DNA of 64,000 nt from the NCBI GenBank assembly GCA_002841545.1, contig PGZZ01000010.1, positions 1-64,000 of the forward strand. Direction: 5' to 3'. Below, one piece after another: positions 29-62,031 of this stretch. Origin of the DNA: Firmicutes bacterium HGW-Firmicutes-16 (GTDB lineage Bacteria > Bacillota > Clostridia > Oscillospirales > Oscillospiraceae). Position 1 is the stretch's first letter, and each line of letters opens with the position of its first letter. Under the pieces are notes generated by a model. The model ran no database searches. It saw only the letters and a program-made list of their open reading frames with translations, and was not told the origin of the DNA. Position numbers and translations under genes: made by a program.

Positions 29-1438
29 ATGGAAAAAATCATTCTGATCTGTGTTATCGCGGTTCTGGCGTTATCTCTTGTACTGTTTATTGTCCGCCGC
101 TACAAAAGATGCCCATCCGACAAAGTGATGGTTATCTACGGCAAGGTCGGCAGCGACAAAGACGGCTCCGCTCGAAGCGCAAAGTGCATACACGGCGGCG
201 CGGCGTTCATATGGCCGGTGTTTCAGTCATATGAATTTCTTGATCTGACGCCGCTGAGCATTTCCGTCGATTTGGAGAACGCTCTTTCCCGACAGAACAT
301 CCGTATCAACGTCCCCAGCCGTTTTACGGTTGGTATTTCAACCGAAATTGGCGTCATGCAGAACGCTGCCGAGCGCCTTTTGGGACTTAAGCTCGACGAG
401 GTCCAGGAGCTTGCAAAGGACATCATTTTCGGACAGCTCCGTCTTGTTGTTGCTACTATGGACATTGAGGAAATCAACACCGACCGTGATAAGTTCCTTG
501 AAGCAGTGTCCCGCAATGTCGAGGGCGAGCTGAAAAAAATTGGTCTGCGGCTTATTAACGTAAACGTCACCGACATTTCGGACGAAAGCGGTTATATTTC
601 GGCGCTTGGCAAGGAAGCGGCTGCAAAGGCAATTAATGACGCAAAGAAAACTGTTGCAGAAAAAGAGCGTGACGGTTCTATCGGCGAGGCAAACGCCGTC
701 CGTGACCAACGCGTCGAGGTCGCACAGGCGAATTCAATTGCAATACAGGGTGAAAACACGGCGCAAATCGAAATTGCGAGCTCCAACGCCGCAAGGCGTG
801 AGAAAGAGGCAGAATCGCTCCGCATAGCTACCGCGGCAGAGAAAATTCAGTCCGCAAAAGCTCTTGAAGAAGCCTATGCTGCCGAACAACAGGCCGAAGC
901 AGCTCGTTACGCCCGCGAAAAAGCAACACAAGAGGCTGATATAATCGTCAAGACTGAGATAGCAAAGCGCAAGTTGGAACTTGAGGCAGAGGCGGAAGCT
1001 GAGATGACTCGCCGCAAGGCAAGAGGTGAGGCGGATGCTATCAGAGCCAAGATGGAAGCTGAAGCCGAAGGTCAGAAGTCAATACTTATGAAGCAGGCGG
1101 AAGGCTTGAATGAGATAGTCAAGGCCGCCGGCGGCAACCCCGCCGATGCAATCAGACTGCTGTTGGCAGACAAGATGGAAGAGCTTATGCGCATCCAGGT
1201 CGATGCTGTCAAGAACATAAAGATCGACAAGATCACCGTCTGGGACGGCGGCGAAAGCGACGGTAAGACCGCGACAGCGGGCTTTGTCTCCGGCCTCATG
1301 AAATCTGTACCTCCGATGAGCGAGTTGTTCAACATGGCAGGTATGAACCTGCCCGAATTTATGGGTACTCCTAAGGACGCACCTCATATAATAACACCAG
1401 AGCAGACTCCAATACAGGAACAGGATCAAGACAAATAG
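29..1438 (+). CDS. Flotillin/SPFH (band-7) family membrane protein with a long Ala/Glu-rich coiled-coil tail
   Basis: 469-aa ORF with an N-terminal TM helix, an SPFH-like core and an extended EA-rich heptad region typical of bacterial FloT-like flotillins. RBS-like GGGAAG upstream. Confidence 0.8.
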   Translation: MEKIILICVIAVLALSLVLFIVRRYKRCPSDKVMVIYGKVGSDKDGSARSAKCIHGGAAFIWPVFQSYEFLDLTPLSISVDLENALSRQNIRINVPSRFTVGISTEIGVMQNAAERLLGLKLDEVQELAKDIIFGQLRLVVATMDIEEINTDRDKFLEAVSRNVEGELKKIGLRLINVNVTDISDESGYISALGKEAAAKAINDAKKTVAEKERDGSIGEANAVRDQRVEVAQANSIAIQGENTAQIEIASSNAARREKEAESLRIATAAEKIQSAKALEEAYAAEQQAEAARYAREKATQEADIIVKTEIAKRKLELEAEAEAEMTRRKARGEADAIRAKMEAEAEGQKSILMKQAEGLNEIVKAAGGNPADAIRLLLADKMEELMRIQVDAVKNIKIDKITVWDGGESDGKTATAGFVSGLMKSVPPMSELFNMAGMNLPEFMGTPKDAPHIITPEQTPIQEQDQDK

Positions 1439-55626: not shown

Positions 55627-56508
55627 ATGGATATGAAAGTTTTAAATAAAATTACAGGTAGTCTGCTGATAATTGCGATGCTTTTTTCGCTTCTCAGCGA
55701 TGCCTGTTTTGCGGTGACTAGCGACTATACAATCAAGGATGGTATGCTGAAAGCCTACACGGGTACCGAAAAAGACCTTACTATCCCTAATAATCTGGGT
55801 ATTACGAGAATTGAAATGTATGCGTTCACAAACTGCGAGACCTTGACCTCAGTGACGATACCCGCAAATATCGAATACATCGACTCGAGAGCATTTATGG
55901 GTTGCAGTAGGCTGACTAGCATTTCCGTTGTGTCTGGAAACGCTAATTATAAGAGTGTCAGTGGCGTGCTGTTTAATAAGGATATTACTCAGCTCGTAAC
56001 ATATCCTTTCGGCAAGATAGGAGACTATACGATACCCTCCGGCGTGACAGAGATACAGACGATGGCTTTCTTCGGTTGTCAAGGGCTGTCATCGGTTGCG
56101 ATACCGGAAGGTGTGAAGAAAATAGGAGATGCTGCCTTTGCAGGCTGCCCGTTGCTTACGGAGGTAACGATTCCTGCAAGTTTGGAGTATCTTGAGAACA
56201 CGACCTTCGGTCAGTGCAGAGCTTTGATAAAGATTGGAGTTGTGAAAGGAAACACGAACTACGCGAGTATGGACGGCGTGCTGTTCAACAAGGACATGAC
56301 GGAGCTGCTCTGCTTTCCAAGCGGGAGAGCTGGCAGCTACAAGGTGCCATCAAGCGTCAGGACGATTGGTAACTGCGCTTTTAACAACTGTACTTTGCTA
56401 TTTGGAGTGACGATTCCTCTGGGGATAACCAAAATTGAAGCTGATGCGTTTCTCATGCACCGCGCTGATGAGGGCAATCATTTCGTCGACTGTGATAAGT
56501 ATCAGTGA
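55627..56508 (+). CDS. Secreted leucine-rich-repeat (BspA-type LRR) protein, N-terminal part of a probably frameshifted gene
   Basis: Signal peptide. At least six repeats with the consensus AF.gC..LtsVtIP. The reading frame ends abnormally (LMHRADEGNHFVDCDKYQ*) while the LRR consensus continues in the +1 frame. Confidence 0.65.
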   Translation: MDMKVLNKITGSLLIIAMLFSLLSDACFAVTSDYTIKDGMLKAYTGTEKDLTIPNNLGITRIEMYAFTNCETLTSVTIPANIEYIDSRAFMGCSRLTSISVVSGNANYKSVSGVLFNKDITQLVTYPFGKIGDYTIPSGVTEIQTMAFFGCQGLSSVAIPEGVKKIGDAAFAGCPLLTEVTIPASLEYLENTTFGQCRALIKIGVVKGNTNYASMDGVLFNKDMTELLCFPSGRAGSYKVPSSVRTIGNCAFNNCTLLFGVTIPLGITKIEADAFLMHRADEGNHFVDCDKYQ

Positions 56509-57043
56509 CGATGCTTTCGGCAACTGTCCTAATGTCACGCTGTATGGCGCTGCGGGCTCATATGCTGAAACCTACACCAAAGCAAACAAGCTAAGCTTCT
56601 CGCTTCTGACTGTGGTCGCGTCTCCAACCGCAGCGACGGTGCTTGTAAACGGAAAAATGGTAGCCTTTGATGCGTATAACATTGGCGGTAACAACTACTT
56701 CAAGCTCCGCGACCTCGCAATGGCGCTGAGCGGCTCTGACAGACAGTTTGAGCTTGGTTGGAACTCTTTGAAAAATGCTATCTCGCTCTCGACGGGAGAG
56801 ACTTATACACCGGTGGGCGGAGAGCTTGCGGTTTCGTCCGGGACAACGTCGGTGAGCGCGCTTTTTTCGACGGCGTCGGTGTTTCTGAACGGAACCGAGA
56901 TATGCCTCAAAGCCTATAATATAAACGGCAACAACTATTTCAAGCTGCGTGACGTCGGCGAGGCAATAGATTTTGGTGTGACATGGAATGCCGAAAAGAG
57001 CACGATAGAAATAGATACGACAAGCGGATATGTCTTTGAATAA
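56435..57043 (+). CDS. LRR tail plus two copper-amine-oxidase-N-like stalk repeats, C-terminal part of the same disrupted gene
   Basis: The frame continues the LRR consensus (SCTALMRAIISSTVISISDDAFGNCPNVTLYG). Then two copies of AYNIGGNNYFKLRDLAMAL / AYNINGNNYFKLRDVGEAI. Confidence 0.55.
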   Translation: MKLMRFSCTALMRAIISSTVISISDDAFGNCPNVTLYGAAGSYAETYTKANKLSFSLLTVVASPTAATVLVNGKMVAFDAYNIGGNNYFKLRDLAMALSGSDRQFELGWNSLKNAISLSTGETYTPVGGELAVSSGTTSVSALFSTASVFLNGTEICLKAYNINGNNYFKLRDVGEAIDFGVTWNAEKSTIEIDTTSGYVFE

Positions 57044-57058
57044 CTTATAAAATCAAAG

Positions 57059-57089
57059 GAACGCGGCAAAACAGCCGCGTTCTTTTTTT
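57059..57089 (+). terminator. Rho-independent terminator
   Basis: Stem gaacgcgg/ccgcgttc followed by T7. Confidence 0.8.
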
Positions 57090-57096
57090 GCACTTA

Positions 57097-57810
57097 TTAT
57101 CGACATCTGTAGCCAATCTTTTCTTCCCACCAGCCGAAGGCGATTCTCCCTGCGGCCGGCTCCAATGCCCCCTCGGCGAGGGATAGAAACACGAGAAAAT
57201 TTCCTCCGGGAGGGAAGATGAGCTTGCCGTTCTCGCTCTCGACCAAGGTCACCTCAGGCTCTCCTCTTCGAACGAAGGCCTTCACGCCGCCGCTCGGGGA
57301 ACCTGAAACATCCGATGCAAGCTGGAGCTTCACACGAGGAGTCGGAACCGGACGAAAAGCAGTATTGGAGGGCGTTACAAGAGCTGATTCCGAAGGAGTA
57401 CCGGGCGCTTCGGCGTTAAACCAGAACTGTGCCCGAAACGGAGACGACGAAATGTCCGTCACTGTCCAGACATTGACAAAAAGATTCACACCCGAGTCGG
57501 GCGGATTGTAGAGCCTTGCCCATGCGCTCGTGCCGTTTCCAAAGGTCAGCTCGTCTGCATAGCCGATGAAATACTGCCCTATAGCTGATTCGTAAGTCTC
57601 AATCGGGATGTTGACGCTCTGGGGTAAATGCAAATATTCAATATTTTTATTACCGCTCATATTTTTCAAATTAACCACCCTGTCAAAATGTTGTCTAATC
57701 CAATATATGACGAAAGGTGCGATTTTGCGCAGAAATATAAAGGCACCCATAAAACAGGCGCCTTTACTAGGATGCTTGATTGAATGGTCAACTGTAAAGT
57801 TTACCGACAA
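57097..57810 (-). CDS. Hypothetical protein (237 aa as called; the true start may be internal)
   Basis: The ORF overlaps the 3' end of the SDR gene by 23 nt. The N-terminal 50 aa are hydrophobic. No recognisable motif. Confidence 0.3.
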   Translation of the reverse strand: MSVNFTVDHSIKHPSKGACFMGAFIFLRKIAPFVIYWIRQHFDRVVNLKNMSGNKNIEYLHLPQSVNIPIETYESAIGQYFIGYADELTFGNGTSAWARLYNPPDSGVNLFVNVWTVTDISSSPFRAQFWFNAEAPGTPSESALVTPSNTAFRPVPTPRVKLQLASDVSGSPSGGVKAFVRRGEPEVTLVESENGKLIFPPGGNFLVFLSLAEGALEPAAGRIAFGWWEEKIGYRCR

Positions 57811-58576
57811 TCTTATTGCTTAGATTGTCGGAAAGGAGCTTTGCAATCGAAACGAAAAGCTTATACTTGGTTCCCGCCGTGTATAGGACTTTGGGGTTTT
57901 TCTTCTGAGAGACTCGATAAACCACGGACGCAATGTAATCGGGGCTCATACCGCCGATTTCATCCTTTTCCATGGATGAGACCGCCCTCTTTATCGTTTC
58001 GCCGTAATACGCGTAGCCGTCCTCACATTTTTCCCTCGCCTCGGTAAAGCCCGTATGGACATCACCCGGCATGACGGCGCTCACCCTAATGCCGAAAGGA
58101 CGCACCTCGTTCGCGAGCGCGAGAGTCAGTGAGTTAATAGCTGCCTTTGTGGCGGAATAGAACGCCTGAAACGGAATCGAAAGCGGCGCTGCGACGGAAC
58201 TGAGATTTATTATCCGCGAGCCTTGAGTTTTACGCAGATAGGGGAGAGCCTCTTTGCAGCAGAGGAAGGTGCCGAAAAAATTAACGTCAAAAATCCGATG
58301 TGCCTGCTCGAAAGACGTGAATTCCACGGCGCCCGAAATGCCCATTCCCGCATTGTTTATGAGAAGATCAATTCTTTTTTCCTTATCAAAGACCTCTTTG
58401 AAGGCACTTTGAATGTCCTCCGGCTTAGTAATGTCGGTGGTGACGTGAGAAATACCGTTTTCGCTCTTTCCGGTGCGGCTCAGCTCATAAACGATCCAGC
58501 CCTTGTCTTTAAAAAGGCGCGCCGAGCTTTTTCCGATGCCGCTGCTGCCGCCCGTTATTACAACTACATTGCCCAT
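57788..58576 (-). CDS. Classical short-chain dehydrogenase/reductase (SDR), 3-ketosphinganine-reductase-like context
   Basis: TGGSSGIGKS Rossmann motif and the YSATKAA catalytic Tyr/Lys motif. Start was placed at MGNVVVITGG (ATG 58576), overlapping the upstream gene's stop. Confidence 0.75.
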   Translation of the reverse strand: MGNVVVITGGSSGIGKSSARLFKDKGWIVYELSRTGKSENGISHVTTDITKPEDIQSAFKEVFDKEKRIDLLINNAGMGISGAVEFTSFEQAHRIFDVNFFGTFLCCKEALPYLRKTQGSRIINLSSVAAPLSIPFQAFYSATKAAINSLTLALANEVRPFGIRVSAVMPGDVHTGFTEAREKCEDGYAYYGETIKRAVSSMEKDEIGGMSPDYIASVVYRVSQKKNPKVLYTAGTKYKLFVSIAKLLSDNLSNKIVGKLYS

Positions 58577-59748
58577 TTGTCGCTCTCCAGAACGCTCTTC
58601 ATAATGTCCATCGCCTCGTCGAGAATGGACTCGGTATGAGATGCCATATAGCTCGTGCGTAACAGGCATTCCGCGGGAGGAGTTGCGGGGGGCAGGACGG
58701 GGTTAACATAGACGCCCGCGTCATACAGGTCCTTGGCAATGCCGAGCGTACGGAGCTTGTCATAAGTATAGATAGGAACGATGGGCGTCGTGCTCTCCAA
58801 GTGCTTAATATCACGCTTAGTAAGGCCGTCGCGCACATAACGGGAATTACGGGCGAGATTATCAACGAGCTCCGGATGCGCTGTGAGCTCGCGAAGGGCA
58901 GCAAGCGCACAGGCGCAGCTCGCCGGAGTCATCGAAGCCGAGAAAATGAAGGGGCGAGAGCTGTGGCGCACAAAATCGGCGATTCTTTCCGAGGATGCCA
59001 TGTAGCCGCCGAGAGAAGCTAGGGATTTTGAAAAAGTGCCCATGTAGATATCGACTTCCTTTTCAAGTCCGAAAAGGCTTGCCGTACCGCGTCCGCCTTC
59101 GCCGACAACGCCCAGACCGTGCGCGTCGTCAACCATCGTGCGAGCACCGTATTTTTTCGCAAGCCGTACAATCTCGGGTAAGTTCGCAACGTCGCCGCCC
59201 ATACTGAAAACGCCGTCCGTCACCACCAAAATGCCTGCTGTTTCGGGAACGCTTTGGAGCATACGTTCGAGGTCCTGCATGTCGTTATGTTTAAATCGGA
59301 GCATTTTTCCGTAGCTCAGTTTGCAGCCGTCATAAATGCTCGCGTGGTTTTCCTTGTCGCAGATGACATAGTCGGTACGCCCGACTATCGCGCTTATGAT
59401 GCCGAGATTGGACTGAAAGCCGGTTGAAAAGGTGACAACCGCTTCTTTATGTAGAAATTCCGCCAGCTCCGCCTCCAACTCAAGGTGCATATTCAGTGTG
59501 CCGTTTAGAAAGCGCGAGCCGGAGCAGCCGGTACCATATTTCTCGATTGCCTTTATACCAGCCTCGATAACATTCTGGTTAATCGTAAGTCCCAAGTAAT
59601 TGTTGGAACCGAGCATTATCCTACGCTTACCCTCCATAACAACTTCGATGTCTTGGCGGGACTCGAGAGCGTGAAAGTAGGGATATACTCCCATCTCGCG
59701 AACCTCGTCCGCCGGAGACTTGTGTTCGCATTTTTCAAAAATATCCAT
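58564..59748 (-). CDS. PLP-dependent alpha-oxoamine synthase, serine-palmitoyltransferase (SPT)-like
   Basis: The PLP-lysine motif GTFSKSLASLGGY is the SPT-type signature, as opposed to BioF GTLSKALG or Kbl GTLGKALG. 394 aa. Confidence 0.7.
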   Translation of the reverse strand: MDIFEKCEHKSPADEVREMGVYPYFHALESRQDIEVVMEGKRRIMLGSNNYLGLTINQNVIEAGIKAIEKYGTGCSGSRFLNGTLNMHLELEAELAEFLHKEAVVTFSTGFQSNLGIISAIVGRTDYVICDKENHASIYDGCKLSYGKMLRFKHNDMQDLERMLQSVPETAGILVVTDGVFSMGGDVANLPEIVRLAKKYGARTMVDDAHGLGVVGEGGRGTASLFGLEKEVDIYMGTFSKSLASLGGYMASSERIADFVRHSSRPFIFSASMTPASCACALAALRELTAHPELVDNLARNSRYVRDGLTKRDIKHLESTTPIVPIYTYDKLRTLGIAKDLYDAGVYVNPVLPPATPPAECLLRTSYMASHTESILDEAMDIMKSVLESDKWAM

Positions 59749-59772
59749 TATTATCCTCCTTCAGCTATGTGC

Positions 59773-60207
59773 CTATTCCTTTGTTTTCAGGTTCTTCGAA
59801 ATCTCCTCAGCAAGCAGCCTCGAGAGCTTCTGCAATACGGATTTTTCCGTATCGGAAAAATCTCTTGTGATGCTCGAAACATCGGGAATCTGACTGCCGT
59901 AGTAATCCAGAAACTTATTTGTCACGACAAGTCGGCATTCGCGCTTGTCGGTTTCGCAAAGCTGCTTCGTGATGTAGCCCTTGGAAACGAGAGAGATTAC
60001 CTTGTACGAAGCGTTTGGCTGCGATATCCCTAAAAAATCAGCGAATTCACCGATTGTAGGTTCTCCCAGAAGATAGATGACTTCCACCGAAAAAGCTTCC
60101 GTTGCGCTCAGGCTTCCCGGTTTTTCATTAATTGTTGCAAAAAGCTTTTGATAATGCGCTAGGCGAAGATAACGATAGAGCTCTTCAAAGTCTGTAGTCA
60201 TAAGCAT
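59773..60207 (-). CDS. MarR-family transcriptional regulator
   Basis: Winged HTH (LSATEAFSVEVIYLLGEPTIGEFADFLGISQPNASYKVISLVSKGYI). First gene of the marR-SPT-SDR cluster. Confidence 0.75.
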   Translation of the reverse strand: MLMTTDFEELYRYLRLAHYQKLFATINEKPGSLSATEAFSVEVIYLLGEPTIGEFADFLGISQPNASYKVISLVSKGYITKQLCETDKRECRLVVTNKFLDYYGSQIPDVSSITRDFSDTEKSVLQKLSRLLAEEISKNLKTKE

Positions 60208-60501
60208 CCCTCAATATAGATAAAAAAATTTATATAAAATATCAAATACATAATAGCACTGACTGACATAAGTTGCAAGCGAAAACTTCACCAATGTTTT
60301 TCATAAACTAAGCAGTTTTATTAATGATTAAATCTGGTGGGATTAAGCGAACGCTTCGCGTTTAGGCGCGCGGTTTATCATTTGTGACTAATAGACAAGG
60401 GGATTTGTGCAGCAAAATTATGATTTAGCAGGCTTTTAATAGTTTAAAAAAGGTAGTATAATGTAGAAAACAGAATAACGCTATTTGTGGAGATTGTATT
60501 A

Positions 60502-62031
60502 ATGAAAAACGAAACGATTTTGGTTCTCGATTTTGGCGGACAGTATAAAGAGCTGATTGCGTCGCGAGTAAGACAGCTTTCGGTCTATTCGGAGATCAAG
60601 CCCGGAAACATTTCAGCAGACGAGATTAGAAGAATTGCACCTATAGGATTGATTCTCACGGGTGGACCGAAAAGCGTTTACGGTCCTGATGCACCGAAAT
60701 GCGATCCTGAGGTATTCTCGCTCGGAATACCGGTGCTGGGTATTTGCTACGGCATGCAGCTCATGTGCTACACCCTTGGAGGCAAGGTTGTGCCGGGACT
60801 CGGCGGAGGCGAATACGGACGTATCCGTACGAAGCTCCAAACAGGATACAAGCTCTTCGAAGGGCTTAGCGAAAACGCCATGACCCTTATGAGCCACGGC
60901 GACATGGTTAAGGAACTGCCCGAGGGCTTTGCGCTCCTCGCTTCGACTGCGCACTGCAAAAACGCCGCTTTTTCCTGCGAGGAGCGCGGACTATACGCCG
61001 TGCAGTTTCATCCCGAGGTCAAGCATACCGACAAGGGTACTGAGCTTCTGCGCAACTTCCTCTTTACAATTTGCAAAGCCAAGGGCGACTATAATATAGA
61101 CGATTATCTTGAAGCGGCGGCTGCCGATATCAGGAAAAAGGTGGGGGACAAGAGAATATTACTCGCACTCTCCGGTGGGGTGGACTCGTCCGTCTGCGCG
61201 GCGCTCATCGAAAAAGCCGTTCCCGGCATGCTCACCTGCGTGTTCGTCGACCATGGTCTTATGCGTAAGAACGAGGGTGACAAAATTGAGGCTGTTTTCT
61301 CGAAAAGACAGCTCAATTTCATCAGAGTTAATGCTTCCGTAAGGTTCCTAAGTGAACTGAAGTGTGTTTCCGATTCAGAAAAAAAGCGTAAAATAATCGG
61401 AAAAGAGTTCGTCGAAGTGTTTCAGGAGCAAGCGAAGATGCTTGGCGACATTCCGTTTTTGGCGCAGGGCACAATCTATCCAGATGTTGTTGAATCCGGC
61501 GGAGGCACCACTGCCACGATTAAGAGCCACCACAATGTCGGCGGACTGCCTGAGAATATCGGCTTCGAGGGACTCATAGAGCCTTTACGCGGACTTTTCA
61601 AGGACGAGGTCAGGGCGCTCGGCAGAAAGCTGAATTTACCCGACGAGCTAGTCAACCGTCAGCCCTTCCCGGGACCCGGACTCGCCGTACGAATACTGGG
61701 CGAGATAACCCCCGAAAAGCTTGAAATTCTGCGGGAGGCGGACAGCATCGTCTGCGAGGAAATCGACAAAATGAAAAACCCGCCCAGCCAATATTTTGCG
61801 GTTCTGCCGGGAGTTCGCTCCGTCGGCGTGGCTGGAGACGAGCGTAAATATGACGATATAATTGCCGTAAGAGCCGTCATCACCAGCGACTTTATGACCG
61901 CCGAGTACGCGCCGCTTTCACACAGCCTGCTTTCGAAAATTTCGTCGAGAATTTCGAACGAGGTCAAGGGAGCAGGTCGCGTTGTATATGATATTTCGGG
62001 AAAACCGCCTGCAACCGTCGAGTGGGAATAA
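60502..62031 (+). CDS. guaA: GMP synthase (glutamine-hydrolysing)
   Basis: N-terminal class-I glutamine amidotransferase (ILVLDFGGQY...GICYGMQ...HPE), PP-loop SGGVDSS, and C-terminal GMP-synthase dimerisation domain (...ATVEWE). Confidence 0.9.
   Translation: MKNETILVLDFGGQYKELIASRVRQLSVYSEIKPGNISADEIRRIAPIGLILTGGPKSVYGPDAPKCDPEVFSLGIPVLGICYGMQLMCYTLGGKVVPGLGGGEYGRIRTKLQTGYKLFEGLSENAMTLMSHGDMVKELPEGFALLASTAHCKNAAFSCEERGLYAVQFHPEVKHTDKGTELLRNFLFTICKAKGDYNIDDYLEAAAADIRKKVGDKRILLALSGGVDSSVCAALIEKAVPGMLTCVFVDHGLMRKNEGDKIEAVFSKRQLNFIRVNASVRFLSELKCVSDSEKKRKIIGKEFVEVFQEQAKMLGDIPFLAQGTIYPDVVESGGGTTATIKSHHNVGGLPENIGFEGLIEPLRGLFKDEVRALGRKLNLPDELVNRQPFPGPGLAVRILGEITPEKLEILREADSIVCEEIDKMKNPPSQYFAVLPGVRSVGVAGDERKYDDIIAVRAVITSDFMTAEYAPLSHSLLSKISSRISNEVKGAGRVVYDISGKPPATVEWE

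Follow-up and report, generated by a model that had tools for sequence, protein, structure and literature searches.

The window analyzed here, a stretch of 64,000 nucleotides from contig PGZZ01000010.1 of Firmicutes bacterium HGW-Firmicutes-16, carries on its minus strand an alpha-oxoamine synthase (AOS) gene and a short-chain dehydrogenase/reductase (SDR) gene, which together form a putative two-enzyme cassette for the synthesis of a sphingoid long-chain base of the sphinganine type. According to this reading, to which we assign a probability of roughly two in three judging from the sequences, the AOS (58564..59748, 394 aa, PLP lysine K241; PLP, pyridoxal 5'-phosphate) is a serine palmitoyltransferase (SPT)-like enzyme and the classical SDR (57788..58576, 262 aa) a putative NADPH-dependent 3-ketosphinganine reductase similar to KdsR of Bacteroides. 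The first-pass annotation had proposed the same pairing of an SPT with a 3-ketosphinganine reductase, and the proposal gained support from the AOS tree, from the conserved and coupled SDR gene and from KdsR as the top family of the SDR. Four minus-strand open reading frames (ORFs) were confirmed within positions 57097-60207, namely marR, the AOS gene, the SDR gene and a DUF6143 gene, and the coordinates previously given for all four were found to be correct. Directly observed in the analysis were the structure and coupling of the genes, the clade to which the AOS belongs, the conserved residues and the conserved synteny. The chemistry and the enzyme families are already known; the novelty lies in the host group and in the compactness and coupling of the cassette.

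The AOS was assigned on the basis of PDB and NCBIfam comparisons, a phylogenetic tree and conserved residues. It matches Aminotran_1_2 of Pfam with 190 bits, and its best match among all PDB sequences was the SPT of Sphingobacterium multivorum (SmSPT) with 410 bits over 382 ungapped residues. The scores were lower for the Sphingomonas SPT (295 bits), ThAOS and Kbl (234-250 bits), cysteate acyltransferases (210-223 bits), BioF (about 185 bits) and CqsA (100 bits). In NCBIfam, the CFB (Cytophaga-Flavobacterium-Bacteroides)-type SPT was the top family with 518 bits, while the beta-proteobacterial SPT reached 404 bits, the best non-SPT family 384 bits, Kbl 372 bits and BioF 366 bits. Pairwise identity amounted to 48-50% with the SPTs of Sphingobacterium and Parabacteroides and to 31-35% with Kbl, BioF and HemA.

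Phylogeny, which the first-pass annotation had named as the means of placing the enzyme, put the AOS within the SPT clade and not with Kbl, BioF or HemA. The neighbor-joining (NJ) tree was computed from 387 columns with 200 bootstraps and contained the window AOS, 14 Clostridial relatives and a set of references chosen by genomic context. As SPT references we used Parabacteroides (next to a diacylglycerol (DAG)-kinase gene), Roseomonas and a Pseudomonas plasmid (both next to an acyl carrier protein (ACP) gene); the Pseudomonas-plasmid SPT is additionally surrounded by genes for a fatty acyl-AMP ligase, an epimerase-type reductase and an N-acetyltransferase. All of them passed the NCBIfam cut-offs, the SPT of Parabacteroides distasonis with 684 versus 640 bits and the proteobacterial ones with 618-626 versus 500 bits. 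The non-SPT references were a Ralstonia Kbl next to Tdh, BioF of Bacillus and Providencia within bio operons, and a Rhizobium HemA. The window AOS and its 14 Clostridial relatives formed one clade, sister to two Bacteroidota/Kapaibacteria sequences. Bootstrap support for the grouping of this clade was 91% with the Bacteroidia SPTs and 89% with the SPTs as a whole, and Kbl, BioF and HemA fell outside. In every clade-level sequence comparison tested, the AOS behaved as an SPT-clade enzyme. Since the Clostridial clade is nested within SPTs of the Fibrobacterota-Chlorobiota-Bacteroidota (FCB) group, an ancient horizontal transfer is suggested.

Two further observations were made on the sequences collected for this comparison. 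Record NZ_OY725812.1, designated 'plasmid 67' of Parabacteroides distasonis (L083), comprises 250 kb with the core chromosomal genes lon, rodA, mrdA, mreC and mreD besides an SPT gene, and probably represents a piece of the chromosome that was given the wrong label. A 2.2 kb contig binned to the Chloroflexota genus Flexilinea (Flexilinea sp., L065) contains an AOS-SDR pair which falls inside the Clostridial clade (68% identity); either the contig was mis-binned or the pair was transferred recently.

The active site was compared with that of SmSPT, in which N52, G80, S81, H138, S185, D210, A212, H213, T241, S243 and K244 interact with PLP, the carboxylate or the serine hydroxyl, and Y27, F28, F83, L84, M271, F272 and F338 form two hydrophobic cores at the dimer interface (PMC10196870). 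R367 was also included in the PLP/substrate-binding set, and a one-residue numbering offset was corrected before comparison. The AOS was identical to SmSPT at 18 of 20 active-site and hydrophobic-core positions, and both departures are conservative, with isoleucine in place of M271 (as in the Parabacteroides SPT) and leucine in place of F338. All members of the Clostridial clade share Y27, F28, F83, L84 and N85 with the CFB SPTs; none of Kbl, BioF and HemA has all five.

The PLP lysine K241 of the AOS is surrounded by MGTFSKSLASLGG. The GTFSKS motif highlighted in the first-pass annotation is indeed present and typical of SPTs, as it was found in all SPT references, whereas Kbl and HemA carry GTLGKA and the BioF references GTLSKA or ATFGKA; its exclusivity to SPTs did not hold, because the motif also occurs in a divergent AOS from a Bacteroides fragilis plasmid. 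This plasmid enzyme (L090 2803-4038, conjugative plasmid NZ_CP054001.1) is SPT-related, scores 306 bits against SmSPT and retains GTFSKS, and its substrate-loop residues are altered (G80A, S81A, F83V, L84I, N85G). It was considered as a sulfonolipid-type reference and rejected as a divergent SPT relative rather than a SulA or CapB; PDB scores were used instead.

The SDR was assigned from Pfam, NCBIfam and sequence motifs. Its start codon, ATG 58576 (MGNVVVITGG), lies 13 nt inside the 3' end of the AOS gene and is preceded by GGAGAG. The translational coupling of the two genes postulated in the first-pass annotation was substantiated by this overlap and the GGAGAG sequence as well as by the same -13 nt overlap in 11 close relatives; at the other AOS-SDR loci the estimated gaps were mostly between -8 and +7 nt. 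The protein matches adh_short of Pfam (155 bits), and its top NCBIfam family is KdsR (225 bits), the 3-ketodihydrosphingosine reductase of Bacteroides defined by BT_0972 (PMC9278070). KdsR ranked first for all eight cassette SDRs tested, that is, the window SDR and seven from distant loci (237-305 bits for the latter, 225-305 bits overall); we consider the ranking as supportive and the score as not diagnostic. A search of a plasmid collection for Bacteroidales KdsR yielded only generic rhizobial PRK06179-type oxidoreductases of about 35% identity. Across 58 cassette SDRs, TGxxxGIG, NNAG and the catalytic Asn-Ser-Tyr-Lys residues (YxxxK) are conserved, as is Arg34 after beta-2, an invariant arginine that would fit binding of NADP(H).

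A scan of a genome collection returned 80 loci related to that of the window (81 in total). Nearly all of these are metagenome-assembled genomes (MAGs) labelled Oscillospiraceae, Ruminococcaceae, Christensenellaceae, Clostridia or Eubacteriales, and their record names place them in the human gut (UMGS, CAG, Hadza), rumen, rabbit, chicken and anaerobic digesters. Two carriers are cultured, Clostridium rhizosphaerae YIM B02515 (L078) and Clostridiales oral taxon 876 F0540 (L077), and close AOS homologs number thousands in metagenomes. The SDR gene adjoins the AOS gene in 58 of the 81 loci (50 downstream, 6 directly upstream and 2 divergent), which span AOS identities of 58-97%, and the pairwise divergences of the two proteins are correlated across loci (Pearson r = 0.82). 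Adjacency maintained in so many loci over this range of AOS identity argues that the linkage is not due to chance and that the SDR is a conserved functional partner of the AOS. When the neighbouring ORFs of all 81 loci were clustered, only the SDR recurred, several other recurring 'ORFs' being antisense artefacts inside the AOS gene; neither Tdh nor a bio gene was linked to the AOS at any locus.

Some lineages have additional genes next to the AOS. An acyl-ACP thioesterase gene is located divergently upstream of the AOS gene in 6 loci (L015, L017, L026, L028, L029, L035) and genes for DegV/FakB fatty-acid-binding proteins are found nearby in 5 loci (L015, L025, L028, L056, L059), which ties the cassette to the fatty-acid pool in these lineages. 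In C. rhizosphaerae (L078 7127-11031), two genes for MsbA-type ABC exporters (ABC_membrane and ABC_tran) directly follow the AOS gene, the longest exporter ORF overlapping the AOS end, and the SDR gene lies divergently upstream. The ceramide cluster of the Pseudomonas plasmid (L089 5176-6906) likewise ends in an ABC transporter gene, and the transporters at both loci may be lipid exporters for the product. A literature search retrieved no lipid profile for C. rhizosphaerae.

From these data we infer the substrates, product and cofactor of the cassette, its regulation and the fate of the base. The AOS would act as a PLP-dependent SPT and condense L-serine with a long-chain acyl thioester, either acyl-CoA or possibly acyl-ACP, to 3-ketodihydrosphingosine and CO2. 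In the second step, the coupled SDR would use NADPH to reduce the 3-keto group, giving dihydrosphingosine (sphinganine) in the step order of Bacteroides and eukaryotes, and N-acylation or addition of a head group would need unlinked genes. Many Firmicutes activate fatty acids via FakAB and acyl-ACP, not acyl-CoA, and the AOS may therefore take housekeeping acyl-ACP directly. Given that no ceramide synthase is linked, the free long-chain base could be the end product.

The enzyme families and the predicted step order are those of the Bacteroidota pathway, represented by the SPTs BT_0870 and that of S. multivorum (PDB 3A2B/8GUH) and by the reductase BT_0972. The likeness extends to the gapless alignment and the shared active-site residues of the condensing enzyme and, by a narrow margin, to the best-matching family of the reductase, yet the two systems differ in genetic organization. 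In the Parabacteroides reference locus, the SPT gene has no adjacent SDR and is accompanied by the DAG-kinase-family gene, and in B. thetaiotaomicron BT_0870 and BT_0972 have distant locus tags (PMC10865984), whereas the two genes of the window are coupled with no kinase gene nearby. The hosts differ as well, since the window comes from a flagellated bacterium of the class Clostridia with a SpoIIE gene near the cassette, which is presumably monoderm and thus devoid of the outer membrane in which Bacteroidota reportedly place these lipids. Finally, the AOS and the SDR both fall under NCBIfam cut-offs that were built on Bacteroidota sequences.

Several observations weigh against the assignment as a sphinganine cassette. 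The AOS score of 518.2 bits is below the 640-bit equivalog cut-off of the CFB-type SPT model NF047600, a model that is clade-specific and on which distant Clostridial AOS relatives score 519-583 bits; the SDR, at 225 bits, stays below the 400-bit equivalog cut-off of the KdsR model NF049977. For this reason neither protein is filed as an equivalog of the Bacteroidota enzymes, and we refer to the AOS as SPT-like and to the SDR as KdsR-like, not as proven equivalogs. The margin of KdsR over PRK06179 is just 6-35 bits across the cassette SDRs, and a rhizobial PRK06179-type oxidoreductase with no known link to sphingolipids reaches 239 bits with the KdsR model; the SDR sequence by itself is therefore not diagnostic. 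About 20 loci have no adjacent SDR. The tree is an NJ tree with few references and does not include SulA or CapB. Neither in the 64 kb window nor conserved in the related loci did we find a gene for an ACP, an acyl-CoA ligase, an N-acyltransferase/ceramide synthase, a kinase or a head-group enzyme. The searchable literature holds no lipidomic evidence of sphingolipids in Clostridia. Serine specificity in SPT is achieved largely via water-mediated and PLP-phosphate contacts (PMC10196870), and other small amino acid substrates are therefore compatible with the AOS sequence.

This last point bears on an alternative we consider unlikely, namely that the cassette performs the same chemistry with another amino acid (alanine, glycine, cysteate or another small one) and makes a 1-deoxy-sphingoid base, a capnine-like sulfonolipid precursor or another amino-alcohol lipid. 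Enzymes of the SPT family take alanine and glycine at low efficiency, the mode of serine recognition just described would permit it (PMC10196870), and the AOS score below the SPT cut-off is in line with such a deviation. All serine-binding residues of SmSPT are nevertheless retained in the AOS (N49, G77, S78, H135, S240 and K241). The synthesis of capnine and sulfonolipids has a similar logic, with an AOS (the cysteate acyltransferase SulA/CapB) and then a reductase acting on a long-chain acyl donor. The AOS is, however, far nearer to SPT than to the cysteate acyltransferase structures by the PDB scores given above, and no cysteate synthase or other cysteate-forming or precursor gene is linked.

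Even less probable appears a step order as in Caulobacter, in which an unlinked acyltransferase would first N-acylate 3-ketosphinganine and the SDR, acting like CerR, would reduce 3-keto-dihydroceramide. Two bacterial step orders are known (PMC10865984, PMC9278070), and the substrate of the SDR cannot be read from its sequence. The proteobacterial ceramide cluster of the Caulobacter type (ACP, acyl-ACP synthetase, Spt, bCerS and CerR) shares the first, SPT-type condensation with the cassette, and its SPTs fall into one clade with the AOS at 89% bootstrap support and about 38% identity. Its further components, an ACP, a fatty acyl-AMP ligase, an N-acyltransferase and an epimerase-type reductase, are carried by the Roseomonas and Pseudomonas plasmid references (L088, L089) but are neither linked to the AOS in the window nor recurrent in the 81 loci, and no acyltransferase is linked to the AOS at any of them. 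The reductase of the cassette is instead a classical SDR with Bacteroides KdsR as its best family, and differs in type from the NAD-dependent epimerase/dehydratase encoded next to the proteobacterial SPT of L089.

We regard it as highly improbable that the SDR is an unrelated neighbour or that the pair produces a small amino-ketone or amino-alcohol signal as do CqsA or LqsA. In favour of this view, SDRs form a large group of promiscuous enzymes, the KdsR score does not discriminate, and a small-molecule pathway would be a fitting target for a MarR regulator. The SDR gene is, on the other hand, translationally coupled to the AOS gene and adjacent to it over deep AOS divergence, it co-varies with the AOS, and its product has KdsR as top family, all of which speaks against an unrelated, separately expressed enzyme. 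The CqsA-like signal raised as an alternative in the first-pass annotation found no support either, because CqsA was the most distant AOS family tested: the AOS scored 100 bits against CqsA structures versus 410 bits against SPT, and 191 bits on the CqsA model NF005526 versus a cut-off of 428 bits. In addition, MarR is absent from most loci. A CqsA-like role was rejected on the grounds of phylogeny, scores and context.

A housekeeping role of the AOS as Kbl (glycine C-acetyltransferase in threonine catabolism) or BioF (biotin synthesis), with which it shares fold and PLP chemistry, is close to negligible and was rejected on the same three grounds: some sources name homologs '8-amino-7-oxononanoate synthase' and the sub-threshold scores on these models are substantial (366-372 bits), but the AOS lies outside both branches of the tree, scores 146-152 bits below its own SPT score, falls short of the cut-offs for Kbl (372 and 296 bits versus 460 or 493) and BioF (366 versus 426 bits), carries GTFSKS and not GTLGKA, and has no threonine dehydrogenase or bio gene nearby in the window or at any other locus, unlike the reference Kbl and BioFs.

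Upstream of the AOS gene, marR (59773..60207, minus strand) encodes a MarR-family transcriptional regulator of 144 aa which clears the gathering score of Pfam PF01047 (32.1 versus 24.6 bits); no specific NCBIfam equivalog was matched, FabT, SlyA and others reaching only about 20 bits. The gap between marR and the AOS gene is 24 nt and contains the ribosome-binding site GAAGGAGG. The MarR gene reported upstream of the AOS is present in the window, yet it does not qualify as a conserved part of the system, since it was found upstream of the AOS in only about 12 loci, 10 of which have AOS identities of at least 84%, the remaining two being L054 and L076. A sigma-70-type promoter of the operon was detected in a consensus scan at 60250..60278 (minus strand; TTGCAA, 17 nt spacer, TATTAT, extended -10 TG), and an alignment of 11 MarR-carrying loci showed both hexamers to be kept while the flanking intergenic sequence diverged. 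Just downstream of the -10 element, at 60229..60239, lies the 11-nt block TTTTATATAAA with the perfect palindrome TTTATATAAA. All 11 aligned upstream regions carry this block unchanged, while the remainder of the spacer has diverged, and we infer that the palindrome is a plausible candidate operator for MarR. MarR would act as a repressor, probably by binding to TTTATATAAA, and marR and the gene pair would be transcribed from one promoter in this lineage.

The last gene of the group (57097..57660, minus strand, co-oriented) encodes a protein of about 187-190 aa with a Pfam match to DUF6143 (171 bits), predicted by a structure model to adopt a jelly-roll beta-sandwich fold. In the Pfam match, model position 14 corresponds to ORF residue 64, and homologs typically have 185-195 aa, a 95%-identical one having 190 aa. 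Match position and homolog lengths place the start most plausibly near ATG 57660 or TTG 57669, about 120 nt past the SDR stop; the start selected by a gene caller, ATG 57750, would not overlap the SDR gene either. The overlap with the SDR gene described in the first-pass annotation would arise only with the most upstream TTG (57810) and is contradicted by the homolog lengths and the Pfam position. A place of this gene in the conserved system was likewise not borne out, as DUF6143 adjoins the cassette in only 3 of the 81 loci; in Hydrogenoanaerobacterium it stands alone among redox genes. An intrinsic terminator with a 9-bp GC-rich stem followed by a T-run was found by a terminator scan 3' of the DUF6143 gene (57059..57082, minus strand), and the same scan showed no convincing terminator in the interval between the SDR and DUF6143 genes. 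With one promoter 5' of marR and the only convincing terminator after DUF6143, all four genes probably form one transcript in this genome; DUF6143 is thus probably co-transcribed here, yet stands outside the conserved cassette. An Rfam scan of 56500-61000 revealed no riboswitch or leader, the sole match being sub-threshold and located over the terminator.

The identical AOS occurs on two contigs, one of 128.6 kb from an ENA metagenome and one from a Logan assembly, the latter with the same gene order as the window. The nearest relative in the genome collection is a 'Bacillota bacterium' MAG with 97% AOS identity, and an AOS of 93% identity is present on OY763424.2, a complete chromosome of an Oscillospiraceae MAG. 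Genes around the cassette include those for flagellin, SpoIIE, hydrogenases and a 2-oxoacid:ferredoxin oxidoreductase, which fits a flagellated and probably spore-forming anaerobe of the class Clostridia as the host.

Three further features of the window are recorded here. The intergenic region between guaA and marR contains at 60374-60391 an 18-nt element, TTAGTCACAAATGATAAA in minus-strand reading, which is recognisable in 10 of 11 loci with the guaA-marR arrangement while the adjoining sequence diverged. It sits about 95-115 nt upstream of guaA, may be a regulatory site of this gene and does not coincide with an Rfam riboswitch. A gene for an LRR_5/Cu_amine_oxidN1 surface protein (55627-57043, plus strand) is split into overlapping ORFs of 293 and 202 aa; the protein is unbroken in the relatives L001, L014 and L051 (about 470-500 aa), and the split resembles a frameshift, either in a pseudogene or from an assembly error. 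At 29-1438 (plus strand), about 57 kb from the cassette and with no evidence of a link to it, lies a gene for a flotillin-like protein of the SPFH/Band 7 type, a scaffold of membrane microdomains. SPFH/flotillin proteins are associated with sphingolipids and rafts in eukaryotes.

NCBI and JGI label the AOS proteins of this group only generically or as AONS (8-amino-7-oxononanoate synthase), and the searchable full text, which did not include the main distribution survey, contained no paper reporting SPT or KDSR (3-ketodihydrosphingosine reductase) in Clostridia or Firmicutes. Whether obligately anaerobic, presumably monoderm Clostridia (Oscillospiraceae, Christensenellaceae and some Clostridium) make sphingoid bases de novo with an SPT-KDSR cassette acquired long ago from a lineage of the FCB group is in our judgement an evenly balanced proposition. 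It is directly testable, as two cultured species carry the cassette and a co-expression assay in E. coli exists (PMC9278070). Throughout the searchable literature, gut bacterial sphingolipids, with reported effects on host immunity and lipid metabolism, are credited to Bacteroidota. If the proposition is true, the gut would have bacterial sphingolipid sources besides Bacteroidota, and uncultured Firmicutes, which are abundant, would contribute to the bacterial sphingolipid pool shown to reach the host. If the cassette is active, metagenomic estimates of 'spt' abundance that consider Bacteroides alone would fall short, and the sphingolipid producers would come to include anaerobes that are presumably monoderm.

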